DNA of 64,000 nt from Pseudomonadota bacterium (GCA_017441205.1 JAFRYG010000150.1:3931-67930); one strand, 5' to 3'. Positions 4,611-60,733 are shown, numbered from the stretch's first letter. Numbers and translations: made by a program. The notes: generated by a model not told the origin, from the sequence alone.

Positions 4611-4674
4611 GACGACGCGTATGACAAAGTCATAGCGTCGTCAAGCGCATCGTATGCGAAGCAAGATGCGCGCC
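4611..4674. repeat. REP-like palindromic element pair (gacgacGCGTATGAcaaagTCATAGCgtcgtc, then gcgcatcGTATGCgaagcaagatgcgc).
   Basis: Inverted repeats carrying the GCGTAT...ATAGC core shared with the elements at 6015, 9573, 23736, 35989, 42405, 48759, 57864 and 60664. Confidence 0.55.
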
Positions 4675-4856
4675 ACATAAAAAATGCGCCATCACGCCGT
4701 TGTATAATCCAACCAAAGCAAGATACGGGCCAACATACAGCCATGATTTTTATCTTATTTTTCAGATAATTATTTGCGACATCCCATAAAAATACTATTA
4801 TAGCCGGTCGGGGGAGTAAAGCAGAGTCACCCTACACATTTTGACAGGAGGCAGTT

Positions 4857-5948
4857 ATGAAAAAGTTCATTCTTCTGGCTCTGGCCATGTTATCATTTGT
4901 GCTGGTCACTTCGTGTTCCGAAGCTGATTTTGACGATGAGTTTGAGGAGGTCTCTGCTGCTGTCTTGCCGGGCCAACCCGTTTACGCTGACGGCACGCAG
5001 ATGAATAATCTGGTTGCCAAGCGTGTGGCCAAAAAAGTCAATTTCTGGGGCAAGAAGGAAATTGTCGACGAATTCAAGCAGTTCAATGTCCCGAATGCGG
5101 ATTTGGATGTTCTGTACAACGTCAGGATTGCCGAGATTGCCAATCCGGGCGTTCATAAAAACGTCATTTTCATGACAGCCGGACAGAAGATCTCCAGCAG
5201 CGGCCATCAGAACGGCATTACGGGACAGTTTGCGACGTGGGACAGCAACTGCGGCAATGTCCAGTGTACGGGTGTGAGCCTGGACGGTCGTTCCATGGCC
5301 ATGAAACTCAAAGCCCAGAACTGGTTCCCGAATGCCTGGTTCGCCGTAGCGCCCGACAACAATTTTGACTACACGATGTCGAGCGCCAAACGCAGCCGTC
5401 TCGTTCAGGGATTCACCAAATGGCTCGAAAAGAAAATCACGCCCGATACCGAAAATATCGTTCTGGCCGGAAGTTCGCGCGGCGGCTGTCTCGTCGTGCT
5501 GATGGCACAGGAACTGCGCAAAAAATCTGAGTACAATCACATCAACATCTACGTTTCATCGTACGACAGCGTGTGCAAGAGCGATGAGTTCGGCATCACT
5601 TCGACCAAAATCAACAATCCTGTCCGTCCGTCCGGCACATTTTACGGCGGCTGGGCGACCAATCTGAATGCCCAGTTCCCGAATCGCGGAAACCTCCACA
5701 TCTACCACATTTCCGGCGGCCAGGAGATTGTGGCTCTGACTGGTATCCGGACATTTTCCGGCTACAGCGGTTCGACACCGCCGGGTACGGGTTCAGATAT
5801 CGACTGGGGCTGGTACAAGCAAACTTGGGTGCCATGGGCCCACAAGGAAATCGGCAATCCCTATACGCGTCCTGCCGAGGGCGATCGCCCGCAGGCAATA
5901 GCTGATACGATCGATGCCCAGCTCTGGTGGCTCCAGAATCAGCTCTGA
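4857..5948 (+). CDS. Lipoprotein, putative alpha/beta-hydrolase (esterase/lipase-like).
   Basis: AGGAGG RBS. Signal peptide MKKFILLALAMLSFVLVTSC (lipobox). GxSxG nucleophile elbow (LAGSSRGGCLVVL). 363 aa ORF with clean coding frame. Confidence 0.7.
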   Translation: MKKFILLALAMLSFVLVTSCSEADFDDEFEEVSAAVLPGQPVYADGTQMNNLVAKRVAKKVNFWGKKEIVDEFKQFNVPNADLDVLYNVRIAEIANPGVHKNVIFMTAGQKISSSGHQNGITGQFATWDSNCGNVQCTGVSLDGRSMAMKLKAQNWFPNAWFAVAPDNNFDYTMSSAKRSRLVQGFTKWLEKKITPDTENIVLAGSSRGGCLVVLMAQELRKKSEYNHINIYVSSYDSVCKSDEFGITSTKINNPVRPSGTFYGGWATNLNAQFPNRGNLHIYHISGGQEIVALTGIRTFSGYSGSTPPGTGSDIDWGWYKQTWVPWAHKEIGNPYTRPAEGDRPQAIADTIDAQLWWLQNQL

Positions 5949-5967
5949 ACAGGTGCAGATAAAAATG

Positions 5968-6000
5968 AAGCCCGCATTTGGCGGGCTTTTTTTGTTTTTG
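5968..6000 (+). terminator. Rho-independent terminator (gcccgcatttggcgggc followed by tttttttgttttt).
   Basis: GC hairpin followed by a T-run, 20 nt after the stop at 5948. Confidence 0.65.
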
Positions 6001-6014
6001 TGTTTTGTGGTGCG

Positions 6015-6076
6015 CTGCTATTGGCCTTAGGCCAATACGCACGCGCAAAGCCGCTATTGCTCACGCAATACGCGGC
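6015..6076. repeat. REP-like element, two adjacent hairpins (gctattggcc-tta-ggccaatacgc, then gctattgc-tcac-gcaatacgc).
   Basis: Imperfect palindromes with the GCTATTGS/SCAATACGC core. Confidence 0.55.
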
Positions 6077-6094
6077 TTTTTTCAACCAAGGTTA

Positions 6095-6517: not shown

Positions 6518-6556
6518 ATCATTTCCTTTATATTATATGGTTAAAAGGTTTTTCTA

Positions 6557-7717: not shown

Positions 7718-9424
7718 TTATCTTCTGCCGCTGCTCGAAGGACGGCCGCTGCTGCTGCGGGATACGGTGGAAGGACGGGAACCGCTTCCGCTGCGGCCAG
7801 AGCGACTGGCACGCGATCCGTTGCCTTCATCCTCTTCTTCCATGTACTGGCTCTTGCCGCTGGCGCTGGAAACACGTCCGGACGAAGAAGGACGGGAACC
7901 TGAACCGTAGGAACTGCCGCTGCTCGAGGAAGGACGGGAACCTGAACCGTAGGAGCTGCCTGTGCTCGTCGAAGGACGCGAACCTGAGCCATAGGAACTG
8001 CTGCTCGTCGAAGGACGGGAACCTGAGCCGTAGGAGCTGCTGCTCGTCGAAGGACGAGAACCTGAGCCGTAGGAGCTGCTGCTCGTCGAAGGACGCGAAC
8101 CTGTACCGTAGGAGCTGCCCGTGCTCGTCGAAGGACGCGAACCTGTGCCGTAGGAGCTGCCTGTGCTCGTCGAGGGACGCGAACCTGTTCCGTAGGAGCT
8201 GCCCGTACTCGTCGAGGGACGCGAACCTGTACCGTAGGAGCTGCCTGTGCTCGTCGATGGGCGGGAACCTACGCTGCTGCCCGTCGAAGGACGCGATGCT
8301 GTACCATACGATCCACTAGTGCTCGTCGAGGGGCGGGAACCTACGCTGCTGCCCGTCGAAGGACGCGATGCCGTACCATAAGATCCGCTACCAGTGCTCG
8401 TCGAGGGGCGGGAACCTACGTTGCTGCCCGTCGAAGGACGCGATGCCGTACCATAAGATCCACTGCCCGTGCTCGTCGAAGGACGCGAACCCACGTTGCT
8501 GCTGCCCGTCGAAGGACGTGATGCTGAACCATACGATCCGCTGCTGCTACCGGCCGAAGGACGCGAAACGGAGGCGTTGCCGCTCGTCGAAGGACGCGAA
8601 ACGGAGGCGTTGCCGCTCGTCGAAGGACGCGAAACGGAGGCGTTGCCGCTCGTCGAAGGACGCGAAACCGTACCGTTGTAGCTGCCGCCGGCAGACGGAC
8701 GCGAAACGGAATTATTTGCACCACTGTTTGCAGGTCTTGCAACGGAGTTGTTGCCTACATTGCCAGAAGGCCGGGCATTACCGGAGGTCTGATAGACAGT
8801 ATTCGCATTCACACTGCCGCGGCTATTGGAAGCCGATGCACCGCCGTGATTATGACCATGGCCATAATCGGGACCCTGCTGCATACCGACAGAAACCCGA
8901 CCGCCGCTGCTGTAGCGAACAGGCGGATGTGAGCTGTAGTAGCTATGGAGATCATAGTGCCTGTGATGGGGATCGTAATAGCTGTTGCGGGCACCATAGT
9001 ACGTATAATAGTTGTAAGAACCTACACGCGTATAGTTGTAATACCCGGAAGCTGCCCAGTGATGTCTGTGAGGCCCATTGATGTAGCACCAGTGATTCCC
9101 GTAGGGAAGGGGATGAACGCCCATGTAGTAATAGGTGTCGAAATAGATGTTGGAGACGTAGTAGCTCGGATCACCAACAAACACATAACGACCATTGTCA
9201 ATGACGTAAAAATCATCCGAATCCGGCGAATACAGATGGGTATGAGGTCCCTGAATATCGCACCAGTCTGCATTTCCGTTGATATCGTATACAGGATGGG
9301 GTCCATAATATGAAACCCGGGATGCTGCAGTACGCGTGGTGACCGTATATGTGCCCGAATAACACCCACTGAGTGAGAAAATTGAAACAAGCAGTGCGGC
9401 AAGTATTGAAAATCTTCTAATCAT
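7718..9424 (-). CDS. Lipoprotein with a His/Tyr-rich N-terminal domain and a long Ser/Gly/Thr-rich low-complexity repeat tail.
   Basis: Signal peptide plus lipobox, MIRRFSILAALLVSIFSLSGC. A duplicated 'W C x I x G P H x H' motif. About 350 aa of (GSRPSTSTGSSYGT)n encoded by a DNA tandem repeat at about 7900..8700. Confidence 0.7.
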   Translation of the reverse strand: MIRRFSILAALLVSIFSLSGCYSGTYTVTTRTAASRVSYYGPHPVYDINGNADWCDIQGPHTHLYSPDSDDFYVIDNGRYVFVGDPSYYVSNIYFDTYYYMGVHPLPYGNHWCYINGPHRHHWAASGYYNYTRVGSYNYYTYYGARNSYYDPHHRHYDLHSYYSSHPPVRYSSGGRVSVGMQQGPDYGHGHNHGGASASNSRGSVNANTVYQTSGNARPSGNVGNNSVARPANSGANNSVSRPSAGGSYNGTVSRPSTSGNASVSRPSTSGNASVSRPSTSGNASVSRPSAGSSSGSYGSASRPSTGSSNVGSRPSTSTGSGSYGTASRPSTGSNVGSRPSTSTGSGSYGTASRPSTGSSVGSRPSTSTSGSYGTASRPSTGSSVGSRPSTSTGSSYGTGSRPSTSTGSSYGTGSRPSTSTGSSYGTGSRPSTSTGSSYGTGSRPSTSSSSYGSGSRPSTSSSSYGSGSRPSTSSSSYGSGSRPSTSTGSSYGSGSRPSSSSGSSYGSGSRPSSSGRVSSASGKSQYMEEEDEGNGSRASRSGRSGSGSRPSTVSRSSSGRPSSSGRR

Positions 9425-9572
9425 GGCTTCCTCCCCTATGACTGCAATATGACTATTGTTTGGATACTCAAGCGATTGATTTCAAATCCGGCATCGTGTG
9501 CCTGATGATTAATTAAGCAATTGACGCGCCAAAATGAAATTTGTTTTTCTTTTGCTCTAAAAATATTTTGAG

Positions 9573-9598
9573 TGCGTATTGGCGATGAGCCAATAGCA
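9573..9598. repeat. REP-like hairpin (tgcGTATTGGCgatgaGCCAATAGCa).
   Basis: Same core as the other REP-like copies. Confidence 0.5.
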
Positions 9599-9639
9599 CG
9601 AAAACGCCGCGCATTCCCAAGGCAAAAGCGGCGTAAACA

Positions 9640-9672
9640 TAAAAAAAAGCCCCCTGGCGGGGGGCCTTTTTA
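9640..9672 (-). terminator. Rho-independent terminator for the giant TPR gene (gccccccgccagggggc + T8 on the minus strand). It also looks terminator-like on the plus strand.
   Basis: Perfect GC hairpin at 9648..9663 followed by TTTTTTTT on the minus strand, 10 nt after the stop at 9679. Confidence 0.7.
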
Positions 9673-9678: not shown

Positions 9679-12600
9679 TCAACCAAGATTGGCCAGAGCT
9701 TCTTTTGTCGGCTCATGATTGGGATCGACACTGAGTGCACGATTGAACATGTCCTTCGCGCGTTTCGGATCGTTCGTCTTCACGCGGAGCATGCCAAGGT
9801 AATAGAAGATCTTCGTCTTGACTGCCTTATCCTTGATGTTCATCTGTTGGAGCAGAAGCGACGTCATGGTCTTGAGACCGTTCTCATAGTCCCCGACTTC
9901 ATAAAGCAGGATGCCGAGTTCAAGGTTATTGGGGATGTTGTTCTTGTCGATGGCACTGGCCGCTTCAAAGGCCTGGCGTGCACCAGCAACATCGCCGTTC
10001 AGCTTGAGGATCCTGCCCTTAAGGCTATAGAACGGAGGCAGCCGCTTGTTCTGTTTTGCCGCACTGAGATTTTCAATAATGGTATTGAGAACCTGTGTCG
10101 CCTGTTCGGTCTGATTACATTTGATGTAGGCATTGACGAGTCTTTCGCCCAAATCAATATCATCCGGACGCGAAGCATAAACTTTAGCCAGGGCGGCAGT
10201 TGCCATCGGTGCACAATCTGCATCAGTATCGGCAACATCGGCGATTTCGAGCAGAATCTTGTTCCTGGCCTCATCATCCGTCTGATTGTCAGCACGAATG
10301 TTGAGGAGTTCAATCTGCCTTGATGTATTGTTGGCATTCTTTGCGATATCAAGCAACGCATCGAGAGCCTGCTCGTTTTTCGGATTGCATCTGAGCGCAG
10401 CATTGTAGTTCTCTTCGATCTGAGAAACATCCCAGTTGGCGGTCTTGAGCAATCTGGCGAGATGGCAGTGAAGCTCAGATTTGTCTTCATCGGTCTGGAG
10501 GCATGAGAGTTTGTGATTCAGCATACCCATGGCGAGATCGAAGGATTTCTGCTGCTCATAGATTTCGATGAGTGAATCAATTGCCTCAAGATTACCCGGC
10601 TGTGCCTGAATAACTTCCGTCAGGGATTCAATGGCCTTGTCGGGATCGCCAAGGTGAGTTGCCGCAAGTTTTGCAATACGGATATTGAATGACAAAACAG
10701 CATCCTCGGTCGTGGCTTTTTCTTTCTGTTCCTTCAGGAGTTCGAAGAGTTCCTCGAAGTTTCCGTTGCGGGAATAGATGTCATCCAGTGCATTAAATGC
10801 TTCCACACTCGAAGGATCATCTGCGAGTGCTTCTTTGAGCAGATCGATTGCCTGCAGATCGTCATTGAAGTTGGCAGCCGCAATGTGTGCACGTTTAATG
10901 CGGATGGCAGCTTTCTGTTTTGGATCGTCAGCATCATCGATTTGTGCCAGATAGAGGTCATCGAGGTCCTGATACTGTTCGTGTTTCACGAAGATGTTTT
11001 CGAGTGCGCTGTAAATCTGCGGATCGTGCCTGATTTCCAGTGCACTGCGATAGGCATCAATGGCTGCAGCAGGATCATTGAGCTTGACCTCATTGGTCTG
11101 AGCAATCTTCATCAAAACATCCAGTTTGTCGGAATCTTCACTCAGGGTCAGCAGCTTCTTATTGAGGAGATCGACATATTTATCGAAAGCTCCGGCTTCG
11201 GAATACAGAACGAGCAGAGGATCAATGGCATCAACCGCACGATCATCAATTTCAATGATGCGTTCCAGGAATCCCATACCGCGTTCGTTCTGGCCGAGCG
11301 TATTCAGGGCAAGATCTGCACATTGATAGAGAACCATCTTCTGATCCGAAGCGACGAATGTCAGATCGGCAACGCGCGATTTGATATTGAGCAGATTCTC
11401 GTTATCTCCCTGTTTTGCATAAATACTTTCCAGTGCATGGAGGGCATCCAGATTTTCGGGATCGATCTCGATGATTGCATTGAGGGCGACTTTCGCATCC
11501 TCATAGTTCTCGAGATGTTCAGCCAGCACGTGAGCCTGTTTGGCATAGAGGACGAGTTTCTCGGAATCATCCGAAGCAGCCTCAATTGCTTTTCCATACG
11601 CCTGAGCAAGTTCATTCCAAAGCCCGAGTTCTTCTGCAATTTTTTCGATGGCAGTAAGGACTTCCGTATCCGAAGGATCCTTCGAAAGAGCTTTGACGTA
11701 AGTCGCAAATGCAGCCCTGTTGTCGTTCAGAACCTCGAGTTCGAGTTTTGCAATCTGCTTGAGCAGCATCAGAGCATCCGACGGATCTTCCGTCATATCG
11801 ACCTTGGCCTGAAGCAGTTCGACGAGCTTCCGGTTTTCACCGGTCTTCGTGTAGTAAGGCTCGAGGAATTCGGCAATATCGAGCGTAAGTTCTTTGTGAC
11901 AAAGCAGTTTTTCGAGTGCATGGAGTGCATTCTCATTATCCGCTTCTTCCCAGAGAATCTGTTTGAGCAGTTCGAGTGCGGCTGCAGGCTCTGATTCGAG
12001 TTTGAGCTCCACGAGTTCAAACCGGATTTCGTTGAGGGGCTGAGCACCGGCTTCAACCCTGCGCTGCAGAATAGAAGCGAGTTTTTCCTTTTGATTCGTC
12101 TGTTTGTAGAGACGATGGAGATTCTCAAGCGCACTTTCGTGGAGCGGATCAACATCCATCACGCGTTCAAACTGGACGATCGTCTTATCCGTATCATTCA
12201 GATTCTGCTCATAGTAACGGGCAGCAATGAGTGAGAGCTTGACGGTTGCATCCGGATCATTGGCTTCGCCAATCACCTTCTCACAGAGCTCAGTCATCTT
12301 CCCGTAGCACTCGTGATGCGCAGTCACCTTCTCAGCGAGTTCGATGATTTCATCATCCGTGGGTGAAGCGAGCAGAGCCGAAACGATAAATCCAAGGGCT
12401 TTGTCGGCATCATTGAGCTTTTCGTCGGCAACATTCGCAGCATCCAGATAGAGCGAACGTTTTTCAAAATCGTCTGACGAAACCTGAATCTGACGCTCAC
12501 ACAGGCCAACATACTCAGCATCCTTCTGACAATTCTTATAAATCGGCATCAGGAACGATGCGATTTCGCCGACAAGTCCATCATTGGCCAGCAATTTGTT

Positions 12601-15600
12601 GAGCAAATCAATGGCATCCTGGTTGGATTCATCGTCCTGCAGAATGGCATGAAGGACTTCGATGGCTCTTGCATTGTCATTCAAATCATCGATGAGAATA
12701 TTCGCCATCTTGAGTTCGGTATTGTGCTTGAGATCGGAATCTTCATGTTTTCCGGCATAATCAGCCTTATTCTGGAGGATTTCGAGCAAATCATCATACC
12801 GTTTGGTTTCTCCGTAAAGCTCTTCGAGTGCATTCAGTATTTCGAGATTATCCGGATTCTCATTCAGAGCCTGGACGTAATTCTCGATTGCGCTGTCCAC
12901 ATCATTGAGTTTGTTGCAATAAACACAAGCGACCTTCACCCCCAGAGCGACTCTGGAATCGGAATCTGTTGCCGCATCAATCTTGCGTTTGTAAATGAGA
13001 ATAAGTTCATTCCAGTTCTCAGTCTTCTGATAGAGCAGTTCAAGTGCATCGAGAGCGACCTGATCCTCTGCATCAAGATCGAGAATGGACTGATAGGTCT
13101 GAATTGCAGCATCAACCTGATTGAGCGATTTTTCCTGAAGTTCCGCAATCTGATAGTAAAGATCCTTCTGATCGATCATATTGGATGCATTCTCAGCATG
13201 TTTCTTCAGAACGACCACGCGTTTTTCATGCTGCGCAGTTCTGGCATAAAGATCTTCCAGAGCACAGATTGCATTCATGTGGAATTCATCCAGTTTCAGA
13301 ATTGCCTCGTAGCACTCCGAAGCCTTCTCCAAATCGTTCAGGCTGTCTTTCTGAATTTGTGCAAGCCGTTCATACAGAGCAACTTTCTCGACATCATCAT
13401 CACAGGTCTGAATGGCCTGTTCATAGACACCGGCCAAAATGGCATCATTCTCAAGCTCCGGAGAAATCTCTTCGAGCTTGCAGCGAGCATCGGCCATATT
13501 GGGATCCATGACGAAGGCTTTTGCATAAGTATCAAAAGCACGTCTGTGATGTGAATCATGCGCTTCATAGATTGCAGCCTGCCGCATGTAGAGATTGACT
13601 TTATCCATAGGATCGTCTGCGACTTCGATCATGACATCCAGAACTCGTGCGAGCTTATTCCATTCATCATCCGAATAAAGCGGCTCGAGCATAGTGGCCA
13701 TATTCTTGCGGAGTTCGACATTTTCTTCCGTCGCATCCGTCGCGCTGAGCATCTTCTCGACCGCGCGTTTGCAGGCAGTCGACGAAGGCTGAATGGAAAG
13801 CGCATTTCCGAGAACTTCGATGGCTTCTTCTGTCTTGTGAAGTTCGCGGAAAAGAACCACCCCCAGCTTATGCATGTATTCAACACGAGCATCATCGCTT
13901 GCCGCATAATCGCTCTGCTGACGATAGAATTCGGCGAGTTCATTGAATTGCTCAGTCTTCTTGTACAGGCGTTCAAGAGCCGCAGCTGCACTCGATGAAT
14001 TCTGATCGATTTCGAGCATCTGCTGATAGGTCTTGCATGCAGCCATATCATCATGTTCGAACTCTTCCTGGAGCGTCGCGATGCGCAGCATAAGACCAAG
14101 CTTTTCGTCCTGATCCTGCATGATTTCGGATTTCTGGATCCACAGCCCGAGCAGAGCCTTATAATCGCGTTTCACAGCATAAGACCATTCCAGGATGTCG
14201 TATGCTTCTGCTTCTTCGGGCTCTTCCGCAATCATCTGCCGGCAAAGTTCGCGGGCCTTGTCATGATTGTCGAGACGCTCTGCAAGCAGTTTTGCCAAAG
14301 AAATCATGAACACGCGCTTGTCGTTGTAATCATCGACGAGGTTCTTTTCCAGAACCTGCGTGTAGAGATCAGCCCAAACCTGAAGCTCACCAGTCTGCGC
14401 AGCCAATGCTTCGACTTTTGCCTGGACATTCGAATCCGTCGGCTGCAGCAGGAGAATCCGTCCATAGGTCTCGAGAGCCTTCGATTTGTCCGAAAGATTC
14501 TGCAGCCAGGTCTTCGCAATTTCATCGAGGATCTGGGCCTTCGAGAACTCATCTTCTTCGTGTTCGGCACGAACTTCCAGAGAATGAATGAGTTTATGCC
14601 AATCATTGCCAGCCTGATACAAAGGTTCGAGTATTTCAGCAATCGACGAAACACTGACACCCTTTTCAAAGAGCTCTTCCAGATACGCACGGGCATCGGC
14701 ATGTTCAGAGTTCTCATGGATGATTTCCTGCAGCGTCTGAATTGCTTCATAATCATCGTTGAGCTTTTCATTCTGGATCCTGGCAAGTTTGAATTTAAGA
14801 TCGAGTTTTGATGACTCTTCTGTGGCATCATCGATCTCCGAACGCAGAAGATTGCTCAAATCGTCCCACATCTCCTGCTTTTCATAAATCACATAGAGAT
14901 CATCCTTGGCCTTTGTCTGGCTGCGATCTGTCTCGATAATGCGCTGATAGGTTGCAATTGCATCATCGTGATTGCCGCACAGGGATTCCTGAATTTCTGC
15001 CACGCGGTACAACAGCGGAATCTGCTTATCGCCATCCATTTCGGCATCCAGTTTTGCTTCGAGAATGCCAAGCAAATCGTTCCAGGATTCGCGTTTGGTA
15101 TAAATACCATCCAAAGCATCCAGGGCATGGGCATCATCGGCCTGAACCTCAAGTGTCGCTTTATAATAGGTTTCCGCCTGAGCCTCATCCTCCAGATGAT
15201 CCTTCAGCATATCGGCGATCTTATTATTGAAGGAGACCTGAAGTTCTGCATCGTAGACATTGCCCACAACATCCTTGTACACACCGACCAGTTCAGCTTT
15301 ATTGTTGAGAATCTCAGACAGGTTCTCGATCTGTTCGATATAATCAGGTTCCTGGCTCAGTTTAACGATGCGGGCATAATCCTTGAATGCAGCCTCATAA
15401 TTCGAAAGCTTATCCTGATGAATGCCGGCAATTCTCTTAAGAAGGTCAACCTGGGCGAAGGGATCTGACTCATCAGAGAGCTGAATCTCGAGGATATCAG
15501 CCAGCTTCTCACTCTGTTCCGTGCGCTCATAAACAGTCTCAAGTACGCGCGATGCATCCAGACGATAATCCTCATTCCCGAGCAGTCCGCGCAGAGCTTC

Positions 15601-18600
15601 AAGTGCTCCAGCGTGTTCAGGATGACGTTCGAGAATCGATTTGTAATAATCGATGGCCTGCTCAACCGAATCGAGTTTGTTCTGATAGACCTGACCGAGG
15701 CGATATTCAATGGCATCCGCATTGTCAGCATCGGAATTGAGCGCCAGTTTCTTCTGCAGGATATCCGTCAAATCATCGTAACTTTCCATGCTCAGATAGA
15801 GGCGATCCAATGCATCCAGCGCCTCTTTGTCTTCCGGATAAATATCGAGGATCTGAACATAGTTCTGAATTGCATCATCCTTATGATCGAGTCGTTCTTC
15901 CTGGATATTGGCCATTTTCCAGAGAAGACTGCGTTTCTCATCATTATCTGTGGCGAGCTGCAGTTTAACGCCATAATTCTCCGAAAGATTCTCCCAGTCT
16001 TCCGTCTGTGAGTAGAGAGATTCCAGAGAATTCAGTGCATCGCGATCATCCGAAACATTGTCGAGAATTTCGCGATAGCACTCGATCGCGGACTTCACAT
16101 CACCAATGCAGTCATTGCTGATCGTTGCCATCTTGCGCAGAATCTCGACTTTTTCATCACCATTGCCAAGATCTGCTTTTCGTTTAAGAATTCCAATGAG
16201 TTCCGGCCATTTCTGCTCGTTCGTATAGAGCGTTTCGAGTGCATTCAGCGTCGAAGCATCCATATCGTCAATTTCGAGCATCTTGCGATAAGCCTCAATG
16301 GCATGTTCAGAATCGTGAAGCTCATCTTCATAAATACCGGCCATTCTCTTGAGCAATGAAACCGAGAGCATTTCATCTTCAACCGATTGCAGGCATCCTT
16401 CATAAAGATGAATGATCTCTTCCGGCTGCTCAAGTTTAAGGGCAAGGGATTCAAAATCAGCCCGCAGCGATTCATCCGAAACATCGAGCTTCAGCGCATC
16501 CTTCAGTGCATCGAATGCACCTCTGTCATCATTGAGATCTTTCTGAAGAATTCCAGCAATGCGGCGATTGAGCTCAACTTTTTCATAGTTGTCATCGCAG
16601 TCCGCCAGCTTGATGCGCAAAAGCGAAATCAGCTCGGACATGCTCGATTTTTCGACATAAATCGGTTCCAGAAGCTCGCAGATCGAAGCGCGATATTCTG
16701 CCGCATTCTCATCCTCAACCGAAACGAGCTTCCGCAGAAGTGCATCAGCTGACGCAATGACTTCATCATCGCGTTTAACTTCGAGAATCGCACGATAGCA
16801 CTCAATCGCACCCTCATAATTCGCCAGATGTTCCGTATAAACCCCGGCCAGTTTGCTGCGAATGGCTTCCACGCGGTCAGAGTCCGAATAGATATTGAGC
16901 TCATCTTCATACAACGAGGCCAGTTCGTTCCACTTCTCATTCGACGAATACAGACGTTCCAGAGCATTCAAAGCCTCTTCGCGAGTAGAATCGATTTCGA
17001 GCACTGCACGGAAAATGCGGATCGCATCTTCGGGCTTCTCGAGGATATCCTCATAAATCTGGGCAGCTTCGAGGTGAATGCGAATGCGTTCATCGTCCGA
17101 GAAATCCGAAAGTTCCGTCTCAAACTCGTAGAGTTTAACGAGCTTCTCAAACATTGACGCGGATTTATAGAGTTTTTCAAGGTGCTGGATGGGTTCGATC
17201 TTCTCGGGTTCATGCGCATGCAGCTGTTCCCACAGCACGATGCTGTCGTCCTCTTTGCCGAGTTTTTCTTCGACGATCAGGGCACGGCGGCGCAGCAGCT
17301 CATAACGCCAGTCATCGTTAAACTCTTCATCCAGCGGAACATCGGCATAAAGCGCACTGATCTGCTCCCACTTCGAAACATCATTCGCGCCTTCTGCGAG
17401 CATCGCCAGATTGTCCCAGACTCTTTCATCATCCGGAGTCAGCATGAACAGACGGACAGAAACATCAAATGCCGCAACATCATCATGAAGGACATCATGA
17501 CGAATATCGAATATCTGCCAGAGAACGGGGACTTTTTCTGCCTTATCCAGCGATTTAAGCCGGATTTCAAGAGCTTCGCACTGTTTGGCATGAGAACCAG
17601 CCTGTTCGTACACAGGTTCGAGAATCTGGGCAATCCGTCCGGGTTCCGTTCCTCCGCGAACCAGTTCCTCGAGAGTAGCTATCGTGCGTACATGCCCCGG
17701 ATCCTCATTCAGAATGGAGGCATACAGCTGAATTGCATCATCCGTCTGTCCCAGGTGCGTACGTTCTATTTCTGCCAGTTCAAACATGAGCTCGAGGCGT
17801 CCATCAGACTCAAGTTCCTGTTCACGTTTGAGAATTTCAACGAGTTTCGGCCAATTCTCCGTCGTATCATAAATCGATTTCAGGCCGCGAAGGGCATCCA
17901 GATTTGAACTGTCGATATCGAGAATGCGCTGATACGATTTTTCAGCTTCATCCAGCTGTGTAAGCTGCGTCGTAAGCAGATTCGCGCGTTTGAATGAAAG
18001 ATTGATGATCTCGGAATCATCCTCCGTCAGACCAAGTTTCCGGTCGACGGCTGCCAGCAGTTTATCCCAGCTGCAGGACTGCTCATACAGTTCACAGAGT
18101 GCATTGATTGCCTCAAGATCCCGTTCGTCTGCGTTCAGGCAGTATTCCCAGCTTGCGATGGCATCTTCAGTCTTCGAAAGCTTCTGCTGACACGTGCGCG
18201 CAAGTACACGATGAACGCCCAGGCGGGACGTATCATCCAGTTCCCCGGATTTGACCAGACCGCCATAAACATCGCCAAGGAGCGCATAGGATTCGCTCTT
18301 GTCCACGAGCGATTCAAAATGCTCGCGCAAATCTCCGCGATTGGGAGCAAGTGCAACGGCCTTGGCATACCAGTTCACCGCACACTCAATATTGCCGAGA
18401 CTCTCTTCGTACAGATTCGCGATCTGAACATGCATGGCGATCTTTTCTTCCATGTTGGAAGTCCATGCAATAATGATCTGGATCGCATCGATCGCCTTGG
18501 CATGATCCCCGCGTTCCATATAGAATTCCAGCAGCCGCTTTGCCGTCTTTTCATGCGTCGGATCCACTTCGAGAATCTTCTCGTAGGCAGCAACCGCCAT

Positions 18601-21684: not shown

Positions 21685-21995
21685 GGCTTCCTCTAGGCAA
21701 CAATAATTATACCGGTGCGCGTGCACCTAAAAATGCGCATTATGTTCTATAACATCCAAAATTTGCATTCAAGCAAAGACCGATTATAAGGTAATTTTCC
21801 TTAAAATTCCCTTATTCTGTGCCATTTGCAGTGCGGTGGCCTATTGCATACGGCCACCAGTGTTTGTCTTTTGCCCTATGGGCAATACGACAAACAGCGC
21901 TTTTTTTCAATACCTTGTCGCAACGCCGCACAATACCTACATATCGCCTATCACATCTACCCCACTGTACCCGGGGTTACGCTGCGCTGTTCCTC

Positions 21996-22095
21996 AAACG
22001 TGTCGCGACACGTCTCTACGCATTACGAATTACGCATTCGCATTCGCATTAAATTAACCCAATAATCATCTGTACAGACGTGTCGCGACACGTCT
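21996..22095. promoter_or_regulatory. Duplicated palindromic candidate operator: aaACGTGTCGCGACACGTct at 21996..22015 and the perfect 20-bp palindrome AGACGTGTCGCGACACGTCT at 22076..22095. It lies in the divergent region between the giant TPR gene and glpK.
   Basis: Two copies about 80 bp apart, each followed by gcatt-type short repeats. They lie about 160-260 bp upstream of the glpK start. Confidence 0.4.
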
Positions 22096-22099
22096 CTAA

Positions 22100-22170
22100 G
22101 CATTAAGCATTAAGCATTATGCATTAAGCATTATGCATTAAGCATTATGCATTAAGCATTGTGCATTGCG
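22100..22170. repeat. Tandem heptanucleotide repeat (gcattaa/gcattat) x about 10 upstream of glpK.
   Basis: Direct inspection: gcattaagcattaagcattatgcattaagcattatgcattaagcattatgcattaagcattgtgcattgcg. Confidence 0.8.
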
Positions 22171-42460: not shown

Positions 42461-42658
42461 GAAGCCCCCAAATTAAAAGGCTCTGCTTAACGTATTTGAA
42501 TTTTCTGCTGATAAATGAAATTTTGGCTTGGAGTTCGAAGCGCTTGTTCTTGCCATCGATAGTGGGAGCAGTAGCCCCCACGCTGAAAATAGCGAGGGGG
42601 CCCATGAAGCGGACGAGGAAGAGGCTGAAAAGAGCCTCAATGGCTGTCCAAACGAATA

Positions 42659-45814: not shown

Positions 45815-45977
45815 TGTTTTAAACCTCCATACGTGATGTTTTGATGCATGCAAATCGCATTGTACTTTATGTTGAGAGTTTCTGAGTCAAAAGGTATGTT
45901 CCGTGTTTCTGTATGATGCAATCATGCCCCTCTGTATTGTACTTCGCCAATGCAGAGGTTCATATATCACTGTTCAT

Positions 45978-48533
45978 TCATTTCTTTTCGATAAGAGCCA
46001 TATCTCCGCATGTAGTCATAAAATCATTCGCATTTTGATGATACCTTCTCGACATGGGATCATCGACAAAGAAGTCCTCGTCATCATAACCATATATTAA
46101 TACATATTGACCATCATTGGTCCAGTATTTTCCAGTCTGAATTGCAATAACGTATCCGCCGTTCTTGATCGTATCCTTGACAGTATCAATGGAGTTTGGT
46201 TTAATCTCACAACTAATATTATAATATTTCTGTGATGCGTCGCAGGCAGAATCAATATTTGTCCCACCTTCGGCTTCTGCAGCACCAACTATTTTGAATT
46301 TCTCTGCAACTTCGTTCGGTTTAATATCCAAATTGAGGAGAGCCGTGATCGCATCTGCCCAGCAAGTGGGAGCGGATCCGGAATTATCCATATTACAGTT
46401 GGTACAGGAATACGGGGCATTTTTCCATTGGGCATCGGCTTGATAATAATTGATTGTTGCACCGGAAAAATAGGTCAAATCATTAATTGCGACGCCATTC
46501 GTTTCTACATCACTGGCCAGAATATAATATTTTTGATTGTTGTGGTAAATTTGATACCACTCCGGTGTCTTGGAAGATTTCTTCACTCTGCCAAGAATCG
46601 TGATTGGTTCATCTTTTTTTAAATAACCGGCGATCTGGCTCGGTTCAATACCGGTCAAGCCAAAATCATGATCCTCATTTAGTATCTTTGTGTTAGCAAA
46701 CTTGTTTTGTGGTGAACGTCTGTATGGGGTGTTATCCTTCTTGGCTCTGGGCCTCTCTACTTTTGTATTTTCTATAATATAAATCGTATGCAAATGGTTG
46801 AGGAATTCTTCCATTCCTGTCTGCATATAATGGAGATTGAGCGGATCATCAACATACAGCGTATCTTTATCTTTATCGTATCCATAAACGGTAAGGAAAT
46901 GATATTTATCCTCAGGGCTCCAGTAATCTCCGCCCTCGAGGGCAATGATGTACCCCCCCCTTTTAAAAGCGTTTTCCATCGCCTGCTTTGTTTCTGTGCG
47001 CGTTTTATCAGTCTTGCCGGCGTTCATACCGCCGGAAGTATCCTTCTTCACACAATTCAGCTGATATTCAGACATGATCATGGGACAGATGATACCCTTG
47101 TCCGTCCCAATATTGTCTTTGTACTGATAGAGGTCGAGCTTTTTGGCAACCACTGCAGGGGTAATACTTTTATCTTCTTTTAGAATGGCGAGTGCATTCG
47201 CCAACGATGTCGGACCGCCGCCATGTTCACCAATTGTCGATGTTCTGTATGGAGTATTACCCAAACTCTTGTCATTCTGATAGTAATTAGGTGTGGAAGC
47301 TGACGAATAATCAATGACAGGGACCGGGATATTATTCACGCGTTCGATGTTGCTGCTATGAATATAATACTCGCCGTCACTAAACTGAATTCGATAATAA
47401 CTGCCAAGATATGAATTCTCTCCCATGACTCCAAGAAGATCGACGATTTCACCCGTCTTAAGATTGCCGACGATCTGCTTTGGTTCCCCTTTATGATCAT
47501 TTTTCAGAGTATCATTCGGGTAATGATACTGAGGCGTCCTGTGGATGGGTATTTCTTTGAGCGTGGCGTGAACGACTTTTCCTTTTGGGGGTTCACAGGC
47601 ACTCGTATCCAGGGTGCAATTTGCGTTGCATGCCAAAGACTTACCCTCCGGAAGAGCCGTATTTTTCGGGCATGCAGCGGTTTTCTGAATGAGGCTGCCA
47701 TCACAGCTTTCTCCCTCGTCCAGGGCATTATTGCCGCATTTTTCAGGGATTTGAGCAGTCACACAAGCGGCGGTATTCAATGTACAATCCGCATTGCAGC
47801 TAAGGCTGGCATCCGATGGCAATTGCATACCTTTGGGACAAACCGCAGCATCACTCAGGATTTTACCATCGCAGATTTCTCCATCGTCCAGGGCATTATT
47901 GCCGCATTTTTCAGGGATTTGGGTAGTCACACAAGCGGCGGTATTCAATGTACAATTTGCATTGCAGCTCAGGCGCATCCCAGAAGGCAACAGAGTCCCC
48001 GCAGGGCAGGATGCATCATAGCTCAATTTTTCCGCATCACATATCTCGCCATCATCCAGCACACCATTGCCGCACAAAGACTCAGCTACAGCCTGAACGC
48101 ACGCATCGGTATTCAATGTACAATCCGCATTGCAGCTCAGAGCGGCATCAGGCGGCAGCCTCTCTCCTTCCGGACACGAAGCCCCATAGCTCATTTTATC
48201 AGCATCACATATCTCACCATCATCCAGCACACCATTTCCACATAGGATCGGTGCTTCATCCGGAACGCAGGCAGAAGTATTCAAGGTACAATTTGCATTG
48301 CAGCGCAGTCTGGCCCCCTTCGGCAGATGTTCTCCCGCTGGGCAGGATGCTTCATAAGCCAATATTTCAGCATCACACACCTCAGTATCATCCAACGCCC
48401 CATTGCCGCAGATTGGATCGATGACCGGATCAAGCGAACATGCCGCCATCCCGGTAAATGCAATCAAGGAAATCCCTCTGAGTTCCCCTGAAATACGATG
48501 CATTTTTTCGTGAAACGACGGCGAATGTTTCAT
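45978..48533 (-). CDS. Secreted lipoprotein with 5 Cys repeats and two SH3b + C39-like units, both with non-canonical active-site positions.
   Basis: AAGGA RBS. Unit 1 reads EHGGGPTSLANAL...KYHFLTVYGYD (Cys to Gly). Unit 2 reads NSGSAPTCWADAITAL...DGQYVLIYGYD (Cys shifted, His to Gln). The architecture is collinear with 39808..42336. Confidence 0.8.
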   Translation of the reverse strand: MKHSPSFHEKMHRISGELRGISLIAFTGMAACSLDPVIDPICGNGALDDTEVCDAEILAYEASCPAGEHLPKGARLRCNANCTLNTSACVPDEAPILCGNGVLDDGEICDADKMSYGASCPEGERLPPDAALSCNADCTLNTDACVQAVAESLCGNGVLDDGEICDAEKLSYDASCPAGTLLPSGMRLSCNANCTLNTAACVTTQIPEKCGNNALDDGEICDGKILSDAAVCPKGMQLPSDASLSCNADCTLNTAACVTAQIPEKCGNNALDEGESCDGSLIQKTAACPKNTALPEGKSLACNANCTLDTSACEPPKGKVVHATLKEIPIHRTPQYHYPNDTLKNDHKGEPKQIVGNLKTGEIVDLLGVMGENSYLGSYYRIQFSDGEYYIHSSNIERVNNIPVPVIDYSSASTPNYYQNDKSLGNTPYRTSTIGEHGGGPTSLANALAILKEDKSITPAVVAKKLDLYQYKDNIGTDKGIICPMIMSEYQLNCVKKDTSGGMNAGKTDKTRTETKQAMENAFKRGGYIIALEGGDYWSPEDKYHFLTVYGYDKDKDTLYVDDPLNLHYMQTGMEEFLNHLHTIYIIENTKVERPRAKKDNTPYRRSPQNKFANTKILNEDHDFGLTGIEPSQIAGYLKKDEPITILGRVKKSSKTPEWYQIYHNNQKYYILASDVETNGVAINDLTYFSGATINYYQADAQWKNAPYSCTNCNMDNSGSAPTCWADAITALLNLDIKPNEVAEKFKIVGAAEAEGGTNIDSACDASQKYYNISCEIKPNSIDTVKDTIKNGGYVIAIQTGKYWTNDGQYVLIYGYDDEDFFVDDPMSRRYHQNANDFMTTCGDMALIEKK

Positions 48534-48758: not shown

Positions 48759-48824
48759 GGGCGTATTTGCGCAGCAAATAGCCCAAGGCAGCATGCGCAT
48801 TGCCAGAGGCAAAAGCATGCTGGC
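48759..48824. repeat. REP-like element pair (ggGCGTATTTGCgcaGCAAATAGCcc, then gcagcatgcgcattgccagaggcaaaagcatgctggc).
   Basis: Same core family. Confidence 0.55.
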
Positions 48825-48862
48825 ACAAAAACAAAAAAGCCGCGCAAATGCACGGCTTTTAG
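48822..48862 (-). terminator. Rho-independent terminator for rpsA (minus strand: aagccgtgcatttgcgcggctt + ttttgtttttg).
   Basis: Hairpin plus T-run on the minus strand, 20-60 nt after the rpsA stop. Confidence 0.6.
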
Positions 48863-48880
48863 AGTCAATATCCGACGATA

Positions 48881-57764: not shown

Positions 57765-57863
57765 CGGTTGTTTGAGTGGCCCGTGCTATTGCGCCGAAGG
57801 CGCAATACGCACCGGGTGCGCGGCTATGAGGGCTGCGCCCGCATACGCCGCCCAAACCAAAGA

Positions 57864-57930
57864 GCCGCGTATTTGCCATCGGCAAATAGCGGCGAGGCAA
57901 GCCGTAGTGGCGAACGCCACAAGGCGCGCC
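57864..57930. repeat. REP-like element (gccGCGTATTTGCCatcGGCAAATAGCggc) plus a second hairpin (gtggcgaacgccac).
   Basis: Near-identical to the copy at 60664..60733. It lies inside the tandem duplication unit. Confidence 0.6.
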
Positions 57931-57998
57931 CACAAAATCAGGTTATCACAGAGAAAAATTATTGCAGTTGTGATTCAAACGACATTACGGAGGAAATC

Positions 57999-60368
57999 AT
58001 GCGCAAACATACCAGAATGATTCTTTTGTACGTATTTGCCATGTATGCAGGGATGATGGCTGCGAATGATGGCGCGCAGGCCCAGGATATGGCATGGCCC
58101 GTAGCAACCTGCACAAGCATTTCAGATGACTATGGCCCGAGGGATGGAACTACGCACTCGGGCATTGATATCTCGTGCGCTGGCAACCATGACGTCCTTG
58201 CCGCAGCCGATGGTGAAGTCATCGCTGAAACGACTGATAACACCCAATGCACTTATTCAAATGGACATTGTTATGGTTGCGTTAATGAGAGGGGCAACTC
58301 GCTGACAATCAAACACGACAATGGCTGGCACACGGTCTCCATGCATCTGGAGAAGAAATATGTTTCCACAGGGGACAGGGTAAAATGCGGACAACCGATC
58401 GGAAAAATGGGCACGACCGGCTGTTCGACGGGGCAGCATCTGCATTTTACGACCTACGAAACGAGCTACAGCAAGCATGATTCCCCCTGGAATCACGTGG
58501 AAAAGGGAAACATGACATGCCCGTCCAGCGGCTGGATTGCAGGCCTCGACCTGGTGACGACATACGACCCGCAGAACACGGACATCGACGGTGACGGCGT
58601 CGCCGAAATCTGTATCCGGGGCAATGCCGGCATATACTGTACGTTCCCCAAAACCGACATCACCGCCAAATCGGTAATCTTCGACAAGCTGACCGACAAG
58701 GACGGATGGGATGACAGCTCCAATTACGCGACGATTCGTTTTGCCGACGTCAACGGCGACGGCAAGGCCGATGTCTGTGCGCGCAGTGACACCAAACTGA
58801 GCTGCTGGATTTCGAACGGAAGCGGTTTCGAAACGGAATGGGGGAGCGTACCCATGGCCGATGCGGATGGTTATAAGGCCCCGCAATACTATGCCACCAT
58901 TAAATTTGCCGATATCAACGGCGATGCGAAAGACGATTTCTGTGCTCGCTTTAAAGATGGCTTTAAATGCTATCTTTCGTCCGAAAATGGTTTTTCCGAA
59001 ACCAGCGTCGATCTCAAGGCAATGTCGGATGCCGATGGCTGGGATAATGCGTCGAGGTATGCGACGATCCGCATGGCGGATATCAACGGCGATGGCATGG
59101 CAGACGCCTGCGGACTCAGCAAATCGGGCTGGCAGTGCTGGCCGTCGAAAGGCGATTCCTTCGGCGAACCCATTCAAGGTCCTGCATGGAGCGATGATAC
59201 ATGGAGCGAGGCCATGTATTTTGCGACGATCCGCATGCCGGATATCAATGGCGACCACAAAGCAGACGTATGTGCGCGCGATGCCAAAGGAATTGTCTGC
59301 CACCTTTCGACCGGCGAGGGCTGGGGAGAGGCCATTCGCGGCCCGGAACTCTCTGATGAAAAAGGCTGGGGAAAACCGGAATATTACATGACGCTCCAGT
59401 TCGGCGATCTCAACAAAGACGGCAAGGATGACCTCTGTGCGCGTGGAGCCGACGAGTTTATTTGCTATCTTTCGGATGGCGAAAGCTTTAAACGCGACGA
59501 AAAATACGTCCTCACCGAGTTCAGCAATGCCAAAGGCGGCAACGCCCCCGGCGTGTACCGAACCATTCACCTCGGGGATGTCAATGGCGACGGCATCATG
59601 GATGTCTGCGGCCGCAACCCAAGCAAAGCGGTATGTTTCGTCTATGGCGGCGATACACCAAAACGCCTTGAAGGCCCAAATCTCAATGATTCCTATGGCT
59701 GGGATGAAAATCCATACGGTTCGACGTTCCGTTTTGGCGGTCCCAAGCCAAAAGACTGCAGCTTTGTCGAAGAAATCTGCGACGAAAAGGACAACAACTG
59801 CAACGGCGAAATCGACGAAGGCGGCGTCTGCTGCGTGCCGGAAGTCTGCGACCAGAAGGACAACGACTGCGACGGCGAAGTCGACGAAGACAACGTCTGC
59901 TGCGAACCGTCCGATGAAATCTGTGACGGCAAAGACAATGACTGCGACGGTTCAGTCGACGAAGACAACGTTTGCTGCGTGCCTGAAATCTGCGACCAGA
60001 AGGACAACGACTGCGACGGAGAAATCGACGAAGACAACGTTTGCTGCGAACCGTCCGAAGAAATCTGTGATCAGAAGGACAACGACTGCGACGGTGAAGT
60101 TGACGAAGACGATGTCTGCAAAAAGCCGGAAGAAGAGAAACCCGATAAGCCCGATAAGCCCGATAAGCCTGAAACGCCGGATACTCCGGATAAGCCAGAT
60201 ACACCCGATACGCCGGATGAATCCGCCGACAACACGCCAGCTTCCTCTGCAGAAGGCTGCTCGAGCCAGCCGCAGGGAACGTCTTCGCATCCGATGCCCT
60301 GGCTGCTTGGATTCGGCGGTCTTTTGGGCATGATTCTGTATCGCCGTCGCCGCGAGAGTTCGAAATAA
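57999..60368 (+). CDS. Tandem paralog of the previous gene, with the same M23 peptidase + FG-GAP-like + MopE-like + Pro/Asp/Lys linker + C-terminal sorting-signal-like tail architecture.
   Basis: Start trimmed to MRKHTRMILLYVFAMYAGMMAANDGAQAQD (GGAGG RBS). The same domain order. The last about 110 nt of the CDS and about 40 nt downstream are nearly identical to 57655..57800. Confidence 0.85.
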   Translation: MRKHTRMILLYVFAMYAGMMAANDGAQAQDMAWPVATCTSISDDYGPRDGTTHSGIDISCAGNHDVLAAADGEVIAETTDNTQCTYSNGHCYGCVNERGNSLTIKHDNGWHTVSMHLEKKYVSTGDRVKCGQPIGKMGTTGCSTGQHLHFTTYETSYSKHDSPWNHVEKGNMTCPSSGWIAGLDLVTTYDPQNTDIDGDGVAEICIRGNAGIYCTFPKTDITAKSVIFDKLTDKDGWDDSSNYATIRFADVNGDGKADVCARSDTKLSCWISNGSGFETEWGSVPMADADGYKAPQYYATIKFADINGDAKDDFCARFKDGFKCYLSSENGFSETSVDLKAMSDADGWDNASRYATIRMADINGDGMADACGLSKSGWQCWPSKGDSFGEPIQGPAWSDDTWSEAMYFATIRMPDINGDHKADVCARDAKGIVCHLSTGEGWGEAIRGPELSDEKGWGKPEYYMTLQFGDLNKDGKDDLCARGADEFICYLSDGESFKRDEKYVLTEFSNAKGGNAPGVYRTIHLGDVNGDGIMDVCGRNPSKAVCFVYGGDTPKRLEGPNLNDSYGWDENPYGSTFRFGGPKPKDCSFVEEICDEKDNNCNGEIDEGGVCCVPEVCDQKDNDCDGEVDEDNVCCEPSDEICDGKDNDCDGSVDEDNVCCVPEICDQKDNDCDGEIDEDNVCCEPSEEICDQKDNDCDGEVDEDDVCKKPEEEKPDKPDKPDKPETPDTPDKPDTPDTPDESADNTPASSAEGCSSQPQGTSSHPMPWLLGFGGLLGMILYRRRRESSK

Positions 60369-60663
60369 CGGTTGTTTGGGTGGCCCGTGCTATTCGTAAC
60401 CTTTTTACAATCCGAGTAGCTGTTTTCGGAATTCATCATAATGATTACGCCGCCATGGACGGCGGCGAGAGGCGAGGGAGGCATGTCCATGGATGGACAT
60501 TCGACCCGTAACTGCGATCGCCATAAGAAGCGTGCGGGGGTCGTAGTGGGTGTTCACAATCGAACACCCCCTACCGCGTAAGCGTACAAAAAAAGCATCT
60601 GCGCATCAATGCGCAAATAAACAATTCAGCAATAGGTATAGCCAAATCAATAATAAACAATAA

Positions 60664-60733
60664 AGCCGCGTATTTGCCTTCGGCAAATAGCGGCGAGGCA
60701 AGCCGTAGTGGCCAGCAGCCACAAGGCGCGCCC
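60664..60733. repeat. REP-like element (gccGCGTATTTGCCttcGGCAAATAGCggc) plus a second hairpin (gtggccagcagccac).
   Basis: Copy of 57864..57930. The second hairpin keeps the GTGGC/GCCAC stem with a different loop. Confidence 0.6.

Follow-up and report, generated by a model that had tools for sequence, protein, structure and literature searches.

A family of bulged-G hairpins in a 64-kb stretch of DNA

The stretch of DNA analysed here (the window; 64 kb of contig JAFRYG010000150.1, assembly GCA_017441205.1) carries gidA, rpsA, a gene for a 4015-aa protein and many genes encoding DUF4215, DUF285, C39-like and M23 proteins. Its intergenic regions hold a family of short hairpins with one extrahelical G on the 5′ arm (bulged-G units), which on balance we take to be a dispersed repeat comparable to repetitive extragenic palindromes (REPs) and bacterial interspersed mosaic elements (BIMEs). 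A structural scan of both strands, a pattern search and manual inspection identified 22 units in 12 intergenic regions, 15 on the + strand and 7 on the − strand. Every unit lies between long open reading frames (ORFs), and the density is 1 per 2.9 kb. A hairpin is present at all nine sites (4611, 6015, 9573, 23736, 35989, 42405, 48759, 57864 and 60664) where an earlier note, made from the sequence alone, had placed copies of a REP-like palindrome. Beyond these, copies occur at 21834–21859(−), 21861–21896(−), 31747–31772(−), 57783–57812(−) and 57820–57851(−), and most sites contain a second hairpin.

That note had asked whether the motif exceeds chance and whether it is confined to this locus. 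It does exceed chance: the bare pattern CGTAT-N3–24-ATAG occurs 20 times in the window compared with 4.07 ± 2.09 times in shuffled sequence (0 of 100 shuffles reach 20), and a strict structured motif occurs 11 times compared with 0.0 (maximum 0) in 100 dinucleotide-preserving shuffles. A broader regular expression for the core, which gave 7.8 chance matches in each shuffled window, was replaced by the strict motif and hand-checked variants. A covariance model (R1) made of 16 copies, all from genomes other than that of the window, found 15 distinct window sites at E < 0.01, all 15 at positions already identified and on the predicted strand; scores on the opposite strand were about 15–20 bits lower (for example, 36.4 versus 14.9 bits at 48759). 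Nor is the family restricted to the locus, being present at more than 100 loci in at least 14 related metagenome-assembled genomes (MAGs) at about 1 copy per 3–4.5 kb. A search of Rfam gave no match at the gathering threshold and, at E ≤ 1, only two chance matches to leader peptides.

Host lineage and copy number

A scan for one sub-type of the motif, GCGTATTGGC-N3–5-GCCAATAGC, covered a single genome for each species of Bacteria and Archaea. More than 101 stretches matched and, with three exceptions among the matches listed, they derive from about 14 MAGs of uncultured gut or rumen bacteria that carry the labels Myxococcales, Myxococcota or "Proteobacteria" (UBA4248, RGIG464, RGIG7731, W2P31.034 and others). 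Loci in Acidobacteria (L028), Marinobacter (L050) and JAOZUO (L007) hold at most one copy each and look like chance matches. The host of the window is an uncultured gut Myxococcota of the UBA4248 clade. UBA4248 is a genus of the GTDB taxonomy, one reported member of which has a genome of about 3 Mb with 52% GC (PMC8772591); in the literature we found no account of repeats in this clade, which we met only in a MAG announcement. The window and the matched loci together comprise 745 kb and contain 258 strict copies, 150 of which are not explained by the search pattern. Outside the window the density is about 1 per 4.5 kb, and extrapolation gives several hundred to a thousand copies per genome.

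Architecture of the unit

From the outside inwards, each unit consists of an outer stem, the core GC-[G]-TAT…ATA-GC, in which the G is extrahelical, an inner stem that varies, and a loop that is short and in most units a purine triloop (GCA, GAA or AAA). The constant part is the 11-nt core only (a C–G pair, the G, then T–A, A–T and T–A pairs); the pair preceding the invariant core is G–C or C–G in 97% of copies. The earlier note had described a conserved mismatch in which CGTA on one arm faces GCTA on the other; what is conserved is a single extra base, the G of GC-G-TAT facing ATA-GC. In the core census, 260 copies are canonical, none has the G paired, 27 have lost it and 4 have another bulged base (A in three, C in none, T in one). 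The note's proposal that the asymmetry reflects selection beyond hairpin formation is borne out, as the bulged G is kept (260 versus 0 paired) while both stems co-vary. Stem positions outside the core show two to four Watson–Crick pair types each, with 89–100% pairing. In a fixed-geometry alignment (A1), seven of eleven pairs are changed on both sides and the four core pairs are invariant; the sequences in A1 were chosen for pairing, so its figure of 100% paired is by construction.

Outer stems have a bimodal length distribution, 3 bp or 7–8 bp, and pairing drops sharply after position 8, from 41% to 14% at position 9. Inner stems have 0–9 bp (mode 4), and the spacing between the core halves ranges from 3 to 24 nt with strict complementarity kept. 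Triloops make up 71% of loops, the closing pair being C–G, and they are strongly strand-specific: GCA, GAA, AAA and AAC occur 45, 26, 29 and 12 times, and their complements 6, 3, 9 and 2 times. No preference for GNRA or UNCG tetraloops is evident among the listed loops. Mismatches are G·A or A·G in 37 cases and C·T in 3, and at the points where the short stems end, 24–26% of juxtapositions are purine·purine and 1–3% pyrimidine·pyrimidine. Tandem GA/GA stands at the foot of short outer stems in many genomes (window examples are 9572 and 35989). A·G or tandem G·A closes the helix at its base, and in 62% of copies an A precedes the helix on its 5′ side. The bulge, loops and mismatches are thus all purines on the strand with the G bulge, which indicates that this one (canonical) strand is the strand that folds and is selected. 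A comparison of strand stabilities, in which the canonical strand was slightly more stable with both RNA and DNA parameters, was not used because the scanner had allowed G·T pairs on the canonical strand only.

Stem sequences vary widely: 118 copies have 63 different outer 5-mers between them, and 150 copies have 126 inner modules. In 30 of 626 unlinked pairs both members have the same outer 5-mer, and certain sub-families reappear both inside one genome and in different ones. The outer and inner stems are modules that can be exchanged without loss of perfect complementarity; only the core is conserved.

Arrays, neighbouring genes and terminators

Neighbouring units up to 60 nt apart share a strand in 98 cases and lie on opposite strands in 4, with a modal gap of 4–5 nt. 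Arrays of one, two, three, four and five units number 92, 66, 11, 2 and 2, respectively. All four opposite-strand pairs stand 5′ end to 5′ end, as at 57783–57925.

On the canonical strand of the 258 units, A-runs lie upstream of 45 and downstream of 32, and T-runs upstream of 4 and downstream of 1. At the level of arrays, T5 follows the canonical form in 0 of 168 and A5 precedes it in 20 of 168, which puts a T-run behind the complement. An intrinsic terminator is therefore possible only in the complementary form. Where an A5-preceded array has a called neighbour, the gene on its 3′ side is on the opposite strand in 13 of 16 cases, and it is plausible, judging from these sequence features, that a minority of arrays serve as terminators for the opposite-strand gene. 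The suggestion in the earlier note that copies followed by T-runs act as terminators thus applies to that minority (45 of 258 units, 20 of 168 arrays) and not to the canonical strand, with its T-run after 1 of 258 units. The terminator-like arrays of the window are 23737–23806, which is the sole hairpin with a T-run after gidA on the − strand, 35989–36048, likewise the sole terminator-like structure after the gene at 36088–38604, and 6016–6079 on the + strand. In three window cases an ordinary intrinsic terminator (5967–5995, 9641–9672 and 48835–48865) stands between gene and array.

With stringent ORF calls, units next to a gene 3′ end are antisense to the gene in 116 cases and sense in 46 (104 versus 42 when convergent genes are left aside), and 3′ ends are favoured over 5′ ends by about 2:1. 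When all neighbours are counted with less stringent ORFs, orientation is near balanced, the 3′ side of the array being the closer to a gene in 69 cases versus 39. The copies had been said to sit mostly just 3′ of genes; this holds as a tendency with stringent ORFs and weakens when all neighbours are counted. We do not treat the bias as a transcription-strand rule for the same reason. Orientation shows no link to the GC skew of the locus (88 versus 112).

Dispersal and turnover between strains

Doublets and four-hairpin clusters recur at unlinked sites. In one MAG (JAZRWV), a doublet of gcgcggc…gccgcgc and gcatgg…ccatgc is found at four to five unlinked loci with unrelated flanks; the inner module of its first hairpin differs by locus, and the outer stem of the second carries two compensatory pair changes at one locus. 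Neighbouring units often have a common inner module and different outer stems (for example, in L082). In UBA4248 (L021), the orthologue of the window unit at 9604–9634 keeps the outer stem ACGCCGC/GCGGCGT and has a different inner part, and the orthologous intergenic region holds four units there and two in the window.

Contigs from conspecific strains, about 98% identical to the window, keep seven of nine element-bearing regions. Point changes respect the design (for example, GAA to GCA at 42403), and in one compared region the hairpins are conserved where the adjacent intergenic sequence varies. Whole clusters nevertheless differ between strains. The 225-nt region between M23/FG-GAP paralogues in the window (57765–57989) holds four hairpins (57783–57925); in three conspecific contigs its flanks are about 98% identical and the region itself is wholly replaced by an AATGCG satellite and a GTAG palindrome (see below). 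In the same three contigs, the same four-hairpin cluster stands downstream of the second M23/FG-GAP paralogue. At this second site (60369–60735) the window retains only the first 8 nt of the cluster and its last two hairpins, separated by about 270 nt of other DNA. The break lies right after CTATT of the first hairpin (about 60387–60394), and the interruption of about 270 nt holds a GTAG…CTAC palindrome at 60543–60574. In contig L114 the intergenic regions that differ lie at 875–1255 and 3597–3819.

The individual units at these two sites are as follows. Canonical units occupy 57783–57812(−), within the four-hairpin cluster (structural scan, R1), 57820–57851(−), with one C·T mismatch in the inner stem (R1, 21.2 bits), and 57864–57893(+), which stands 5′ end to 5′ end with the two − strand units (scan, R1). 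A variant with a GTAG/CAA core, a form linking the family to GTAG-tagged REPs, follows at 57901–57925(+) (strict scan). At the second site, 60665–60694(+) is a canonical unit nearly identical to that at 57864 (scan, R1), and 60702–60727(+) is a copy of the GTAG/CAA variant with a different loop (strict scan). The two doublets are copies with different flanks, and their second-hairpin loops differ (gaac versus cagca), in agreement with the earlier note. From these differences between loci and strains it follows that hairpins, doublets and clusters are mobile or exchangeable on short evolutionary time-scales.

Remaining units of the window and their surroundings

The remaining units were found by the structural scan unless another source is given. 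The hairpin at 4611–4642(+) is a single canonical unit (R1, 19.0 bits, E 9e-4) with outer stem gacgacg/cgtcgtc, inner stem gac/gtc and loop AAA. It stands between divergent genes, 240 nt before the start codon of the one at 1972–4371(−), and is preceded by A8 (4603–4610), so that T8 follows the hairpin on the − strand; hairpin and T-run may form an attenuator, or end a small transcript, instead of terminating a gene. Two canonical units, both matched by R1, form a head-to-tail − strand doublet, with 6047–6079(−) first, its complement followed by T6 on the + strand, and 6016–6041(−) second. The unit at 9572–9599(+) is canonical (R1, 29.9 bits), has tandem GA/GA at its stem base and is conserved in close relatives (L107, L108); beside it, 9604–9634(+) is a variant with a GCAT/AAA core, recognised on reading the site and with an orthologous copy in L021. 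A sigma-54-type promoter, TGGCGC-N5-TTGCT, lies close by at 9516–9532(−), about 90 nt upstream of the start of the gene at 7718–9424. L021, L109 and L110 have conserved it in the orthologous region, and the hairpin array stands 45–120 nt upstream of the promoter. On the other side, a single ORF of 4015 aa spans 9679–21726(−), and its 3′ part has about 67% nucleotide identity in UBA4248 (L021).

Beyond this ORF, a − strand doublet comprises a GTAT/AAA variant at 21861–21896(−), with A7 before it on the − strand, and a short canonical unit without inner stem and with a GCA loop at 21834–21859(−) (also R1). The array after gidA combines a canonical unit with an 8-bp outer stem and A7 before it at 23737–23774(+) (pattern search, R1) and a GTAT/AAA variant at 23776–23806(+). 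A GTAT/GTA variant with one U·G pair, at 31747–31772(−), has GTAG directly 5′ of its outer stem (strict scan, R1). The canonical unit at 35989–36022(+) has tandem GA/GA inside its outer stem and A6 before it (R1); it is followed by a short canonical unit with a GAA loop at 36025–36048(+) (also R1), a 22-nt sequence of which is identical to the unit at 42403. The latter, 42403–42430(+), is a short canonical unit (also R1 and strain comparison) with loop GAA in the window and GCA in conspecific strains, and is paired with a GTAT/AAA variant at 42435–42460(+). The canonical unit at 48759–48784(+), at 36.4 bits the best match to R1, stands beyond the rpsA terminator at 48835–48865, together with a GCAT/AAA variant at 48789–48822(+) (also strain comparison).

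Three adjacent large paralogues with Peptidase_C39_2 domains, two of which also have SH3_3, fill 39808–48533, with a hairpin doublet between each neighbouring pair; their 5′ parts are about 93.6% identical between strains, compared with 98.7% for the flanks. The cumulative GC skew has its minimum at about 50–51 kb, gene orientation turns from − to + at 51.6–51.9 kb and gidA lies at 23.9–25.8 kb. The region at 50–51 kb may be that of the replication origin, or the skew may reflect a gene-strand effect only.

GTAG palindromes and a RAYT-like gene

A second family of palindromes, tagged by GTAG, comprises GTAGAGACGTGTCGCGACACGTCTCTAC and relatives such as GTAGAGGCGTTCCGTGGAACGCCTCT. In the window it is found at 21992–22019(−), a copy with the sequence GTAGAGACGTGTCGCGACACGT that shares its intergenic region and strand with the bulged-G units at 21834–21896, at 22068–22095(−) and at 23839–23858. 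Copies at other loci lie at 3513–3540 in L099, 4353–4380 in L103, 2816–2844 in L104, 3933–3960, 4313–4340 and 4790–4817 in L105, and 564–592 in L106. Short satellites (AATGCG/TAATTCG and TAATGCTTAATGCA units) stand beside GTAG palindromes at 22020–22170 of the window, read on the − strand; their repeat number differs in a conspecific contig (L112), and the same cassette of satellite and palindrome is found unlinked in L114–L116.

GTAG palindromes and bulged-G units abut in mosaics, as in the window, where 21992–22019 and 22068–22095 lie beside 21834–21896 on one strand. When a GTAG hairpin is within 40 nt of a bulged-G unit, it is on the same strand as the extrahelical G in all 20 informative cases. 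Bulged-G units that themselves have a GTAG/CAA core are a minority, exemplified by 57901–57925 and 60702–60727.

A tblastn search with Escherichia coli RayT, a REP-associated tyrosine transposase (RAYT), gave one weak match, in L099. The encoded protein matches Pfam Y1_Tnp at 25.2 bits (cut-off 23) and NCBIfam REP_Tyr_transpos at 42 bits, which is below the cut-off of 80; at E ≤ 1e-5 it has 65 homologues, and the source records call some of these RayT. In L105 the gene has the palindrome GTAGAGACGTGTCGCGACACGTCTCTAC on both sides, and five such ORFs (L099 and L103–L106) contain an in-frame copy of the GTAG palindrome between their HUH and Tyr regions. No other Y1/HUH candidate was found in the 745 kb of element-rich DNA, a small sample. 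The earlier note had proposed looking for a RAYT gene in the genome: the lineage has a RAYT-like gene, but a different, GTAG-tagged palindrome flanks it. The association of a RAYT with flanking cognate REPs is thus found for the GTAG palindrome and not for the bulged-G family. In five of six contexts (L103, L104, L105 and two contigs from NCBI) the RAYT-like gene lies in or beside type I restriction-modification operons, in the order hsdM, RhuM, RAYT-like gene, hsdS, a context unusual for a RAYT. This location suggests that the gene is a defence-island passenger or has been domesticated.

Comparison with known repeats

In REPs one end of the palindrome bears an unpaired tetranucleotide, GTAG or CGTC (Di Nocera et al. 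2013, PMC3733652), and the REPs and BIMEs known from Enterobacteria and Pseudomonas include a super-family tagged by GTAG (PMC3733652; Nunvar et al. 2010, PMC2817692). Bulged-G units resemble these elements in being short (18–40 nt), imperfect, extragenic palindromes that are lineage-specific and, by extrapolation, number hundreds per genome. They also form mosaics with other palindromes, have an asymmetry that defines a strand, stand in some copies at gene 3′ ends with terminator-like T-runs, and occur in a lineage with a Y1 gene. The family nonetheless differs from the published REP classes in tag position, outer stem, stem modularity and direct arrays: its tag, G-TAT, is internal, with only the G unpaired and an additional outer GC stem enclosing it; the fourth base of the tag is T and not G; its stems are highly diverse and modular and, though some sub-families recur, appear not to fall into few sequence families; and neighbours are head to tail (98:4), not inverted or alternating. 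The lineage's RAYT-like gene, unlike that of REP–RAYT systems, is flanked by another palindrome family. Doublets recur as a unit at unlinked sites, as do REPINs, which consist of two inverted REPs able to form one long hairpin (Bertels & Rainey 2011, PMC3116915), but their two hairpins are in direct orientation and do not pair with each other.

Two further systems read hairpins on one strand. In the attC sites of integrons, structure is conserved and sequence is free, and extrahelical bases on one folded strand mark the strand that is recognised; attC sites have R and L boxes, RYYYAAC and GTTRRRY. Bulged-G units share the conserved structure, free sequence and extrahelical base on the folded strand, but they have no R or L boxes and no cassette array, being scattered beside housekeeping genes, gidA and rpsA among them; no integrase was found when the 20 largest window ORFs were scanned with Pfam. 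The subterminal hairpins of IS200/IS605 insertion sequences are imperfect, have an unpaired base and are read strand-specifically on single-stranded DNA by a Y1 HUH enzyme. Bulged-G units are likewise imperfect hairpins with an unpaired base, but they have no transposase between two ends, no left-end and right-end pair and no orientation bias with replication skew. Related HUH substrates have been surveyed (PMC6006769).

Proposed mechanism and alternatives

We favour, at somewhat better than even likelihood, the explanation that the bulged-G family is a lineage-specific, high-copy, extragenic hairpin repeat of the REP/BIME kind that folds in single-stranded form, in line with the REP-like dispersed family of the earlier note: it is above chance, lineage-wide and conserved in its asymmetry. 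The folded species would be single-stranded DNA of the strand on which GTAG is read, and the bulged G with its flanking GC and TA pairs would be the recognition element of a structure-specific protein. The likeliest candidates for this protein are the RAYT-like HUH/Y1 enzyme of the lineage and similar single-strand nucleases; by spreading or maintaining units beside existing hairpins, the protein would give rise to head-to-tail arrays. Arrays whose complement is followed by a T-run may have been co-opted as intrinsic terminators for the opposite-strand gene. That the fold occurs in DNA and that the RAYT-like enzyme is the agent are both inferred. DNA hairpins gain particular stability from C-GNA-G triloops and sheared G·A pairs. 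Folding in DNA rather than RNA is favoured by these features, by a folding strand that is not consistently transcribed and by the turnover of whole clusters between strains.

Several observations weigh against this explanation. The RAYT-like genes examined are flanked by the GTAG palindrome GTAGAGACGTGTCGCGACACGTCTCTAC and not by bulged-G hairpins; bulged-G units adjoin such a gene only in L099, which at 1 unit per 3 kb could be chance. Head-to-tail arrays, as analysed here, are unlike REPINs and BIMEs. The lack of a link between orientation and GC skew fits poorly with a simple mechanism on the lagging-strand template. Excision of inner modules from outer stems would leave loop-less GC palindromes as empty sites, and no excess of these was found. 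Finally, the loci outside the window, at least 101 matches, were found with one motif sub-type, so that counts from outside are partly biased.

An unlikely alternative is that the hairpins are cis-acting RNA elements, either stabilisers or terminators in 3′ untranslated regions or sites at which an RNA-binding protein or RNase peculiar to the lineage recognises the bulged base; this role would then be what keeps the repeats in the genome. The preference for gene ends (116 antisense versus 46 sense, 3′ over 5′ by about 2:1), the T-run after the complementary form in 12–17%, the two window arrays that are the sole terminator-like structures after gidA and the gene at 36088–38604, the strong covariation of stems and the persistence of hairpins in strains where nearby intergenic sequence varies all agree with it. 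However, the strand with the stabilising features is mostly not transcribed from the adjacent gene, whose mRNA would have a bulged C, pyrimidine loops and C·U mismatches; an RNA role therefore explains the minority with T-runs and not these features. Moreover, orientation to genes is near balanced with less stringent ORF calls, an ordinary terminator intervenes between gene and array in three window cases, triloops prevail (71%) with no GNRA or UNCG preference evident in the listed loops, no Rfam family is matched even at E ≤ 1 other than by chance, and whole clusters are gained and lost between strains.

We consider equally doubtful the possibility that the element is served by a protein unrelated to the RAYT-like gene, such as another single-strand transposase or recombinase or a cruciform-binding organiser of the chromosome, with GTAG palindromes and bulged-G units merely sharing "safe" intergenic landing zones. 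It would account for the GTAG palindromes, instead of bulged-G units, at the flanks of the RAYT-like gene, for modular stems and head-to-tail arrays that are unlike known RAYT substrates, and for type I restriction-modification operons being an odd place for a housekeeping mobiliser of REPs. Landing zones alone can hardly explain the 20:0 co-orientation with GTAG hairpins, though; intermediate units with GTAG/CAA cores exist, and the 745 kb, a small sample, offered no rival Y1/HUH candidate.

A little less probable still is a reading in which the bulged-G core is not a RAYT substrate but the crossover or recognition site of an undescribed, hairpin-specific enzyme that swaps or nests stem modules. 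If this were true, stems and arrays would be exchanged at GCGTAT/ATAGC, and the family would be a mobile element defined by structure and free in sequence, a new type comparable to attC but scattered over the genome.

It is very improbable that the sites are operators in double-stranded DNA, or independently evolved terminators sharing a short motif by chance: although they are palindromic and intergenic and one array lies 45–120 nt upstream of a conserved sigma-54-type promoter, the spacing of core halves (3–24 nt) with strict complementarity requires a hairpin and not a dimeric site, the one-base asymmetry is conserved, identical doublets stand at unlinked loci and T-runs are absent after arrays in the canonical orientation.

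Implications

Nearly all work on REP-type repeats has concerned Proteobacteria, and there is still debate about what they do and how they spread. The bulged-G family, defined by its structure while the stems vary freely, set in head-to-tail arrays and co-oriented with GTAG palindromes, marks a poorly known clade of gut Myxococcota and could thus aid MAG binning and strain typing; it can also mislead the prediction of terminators and small RNAs in these genomes. If one RAYT-like enzyme handles both bulged-G and GTAG substrates, the pair would reveal what such enzymes read.

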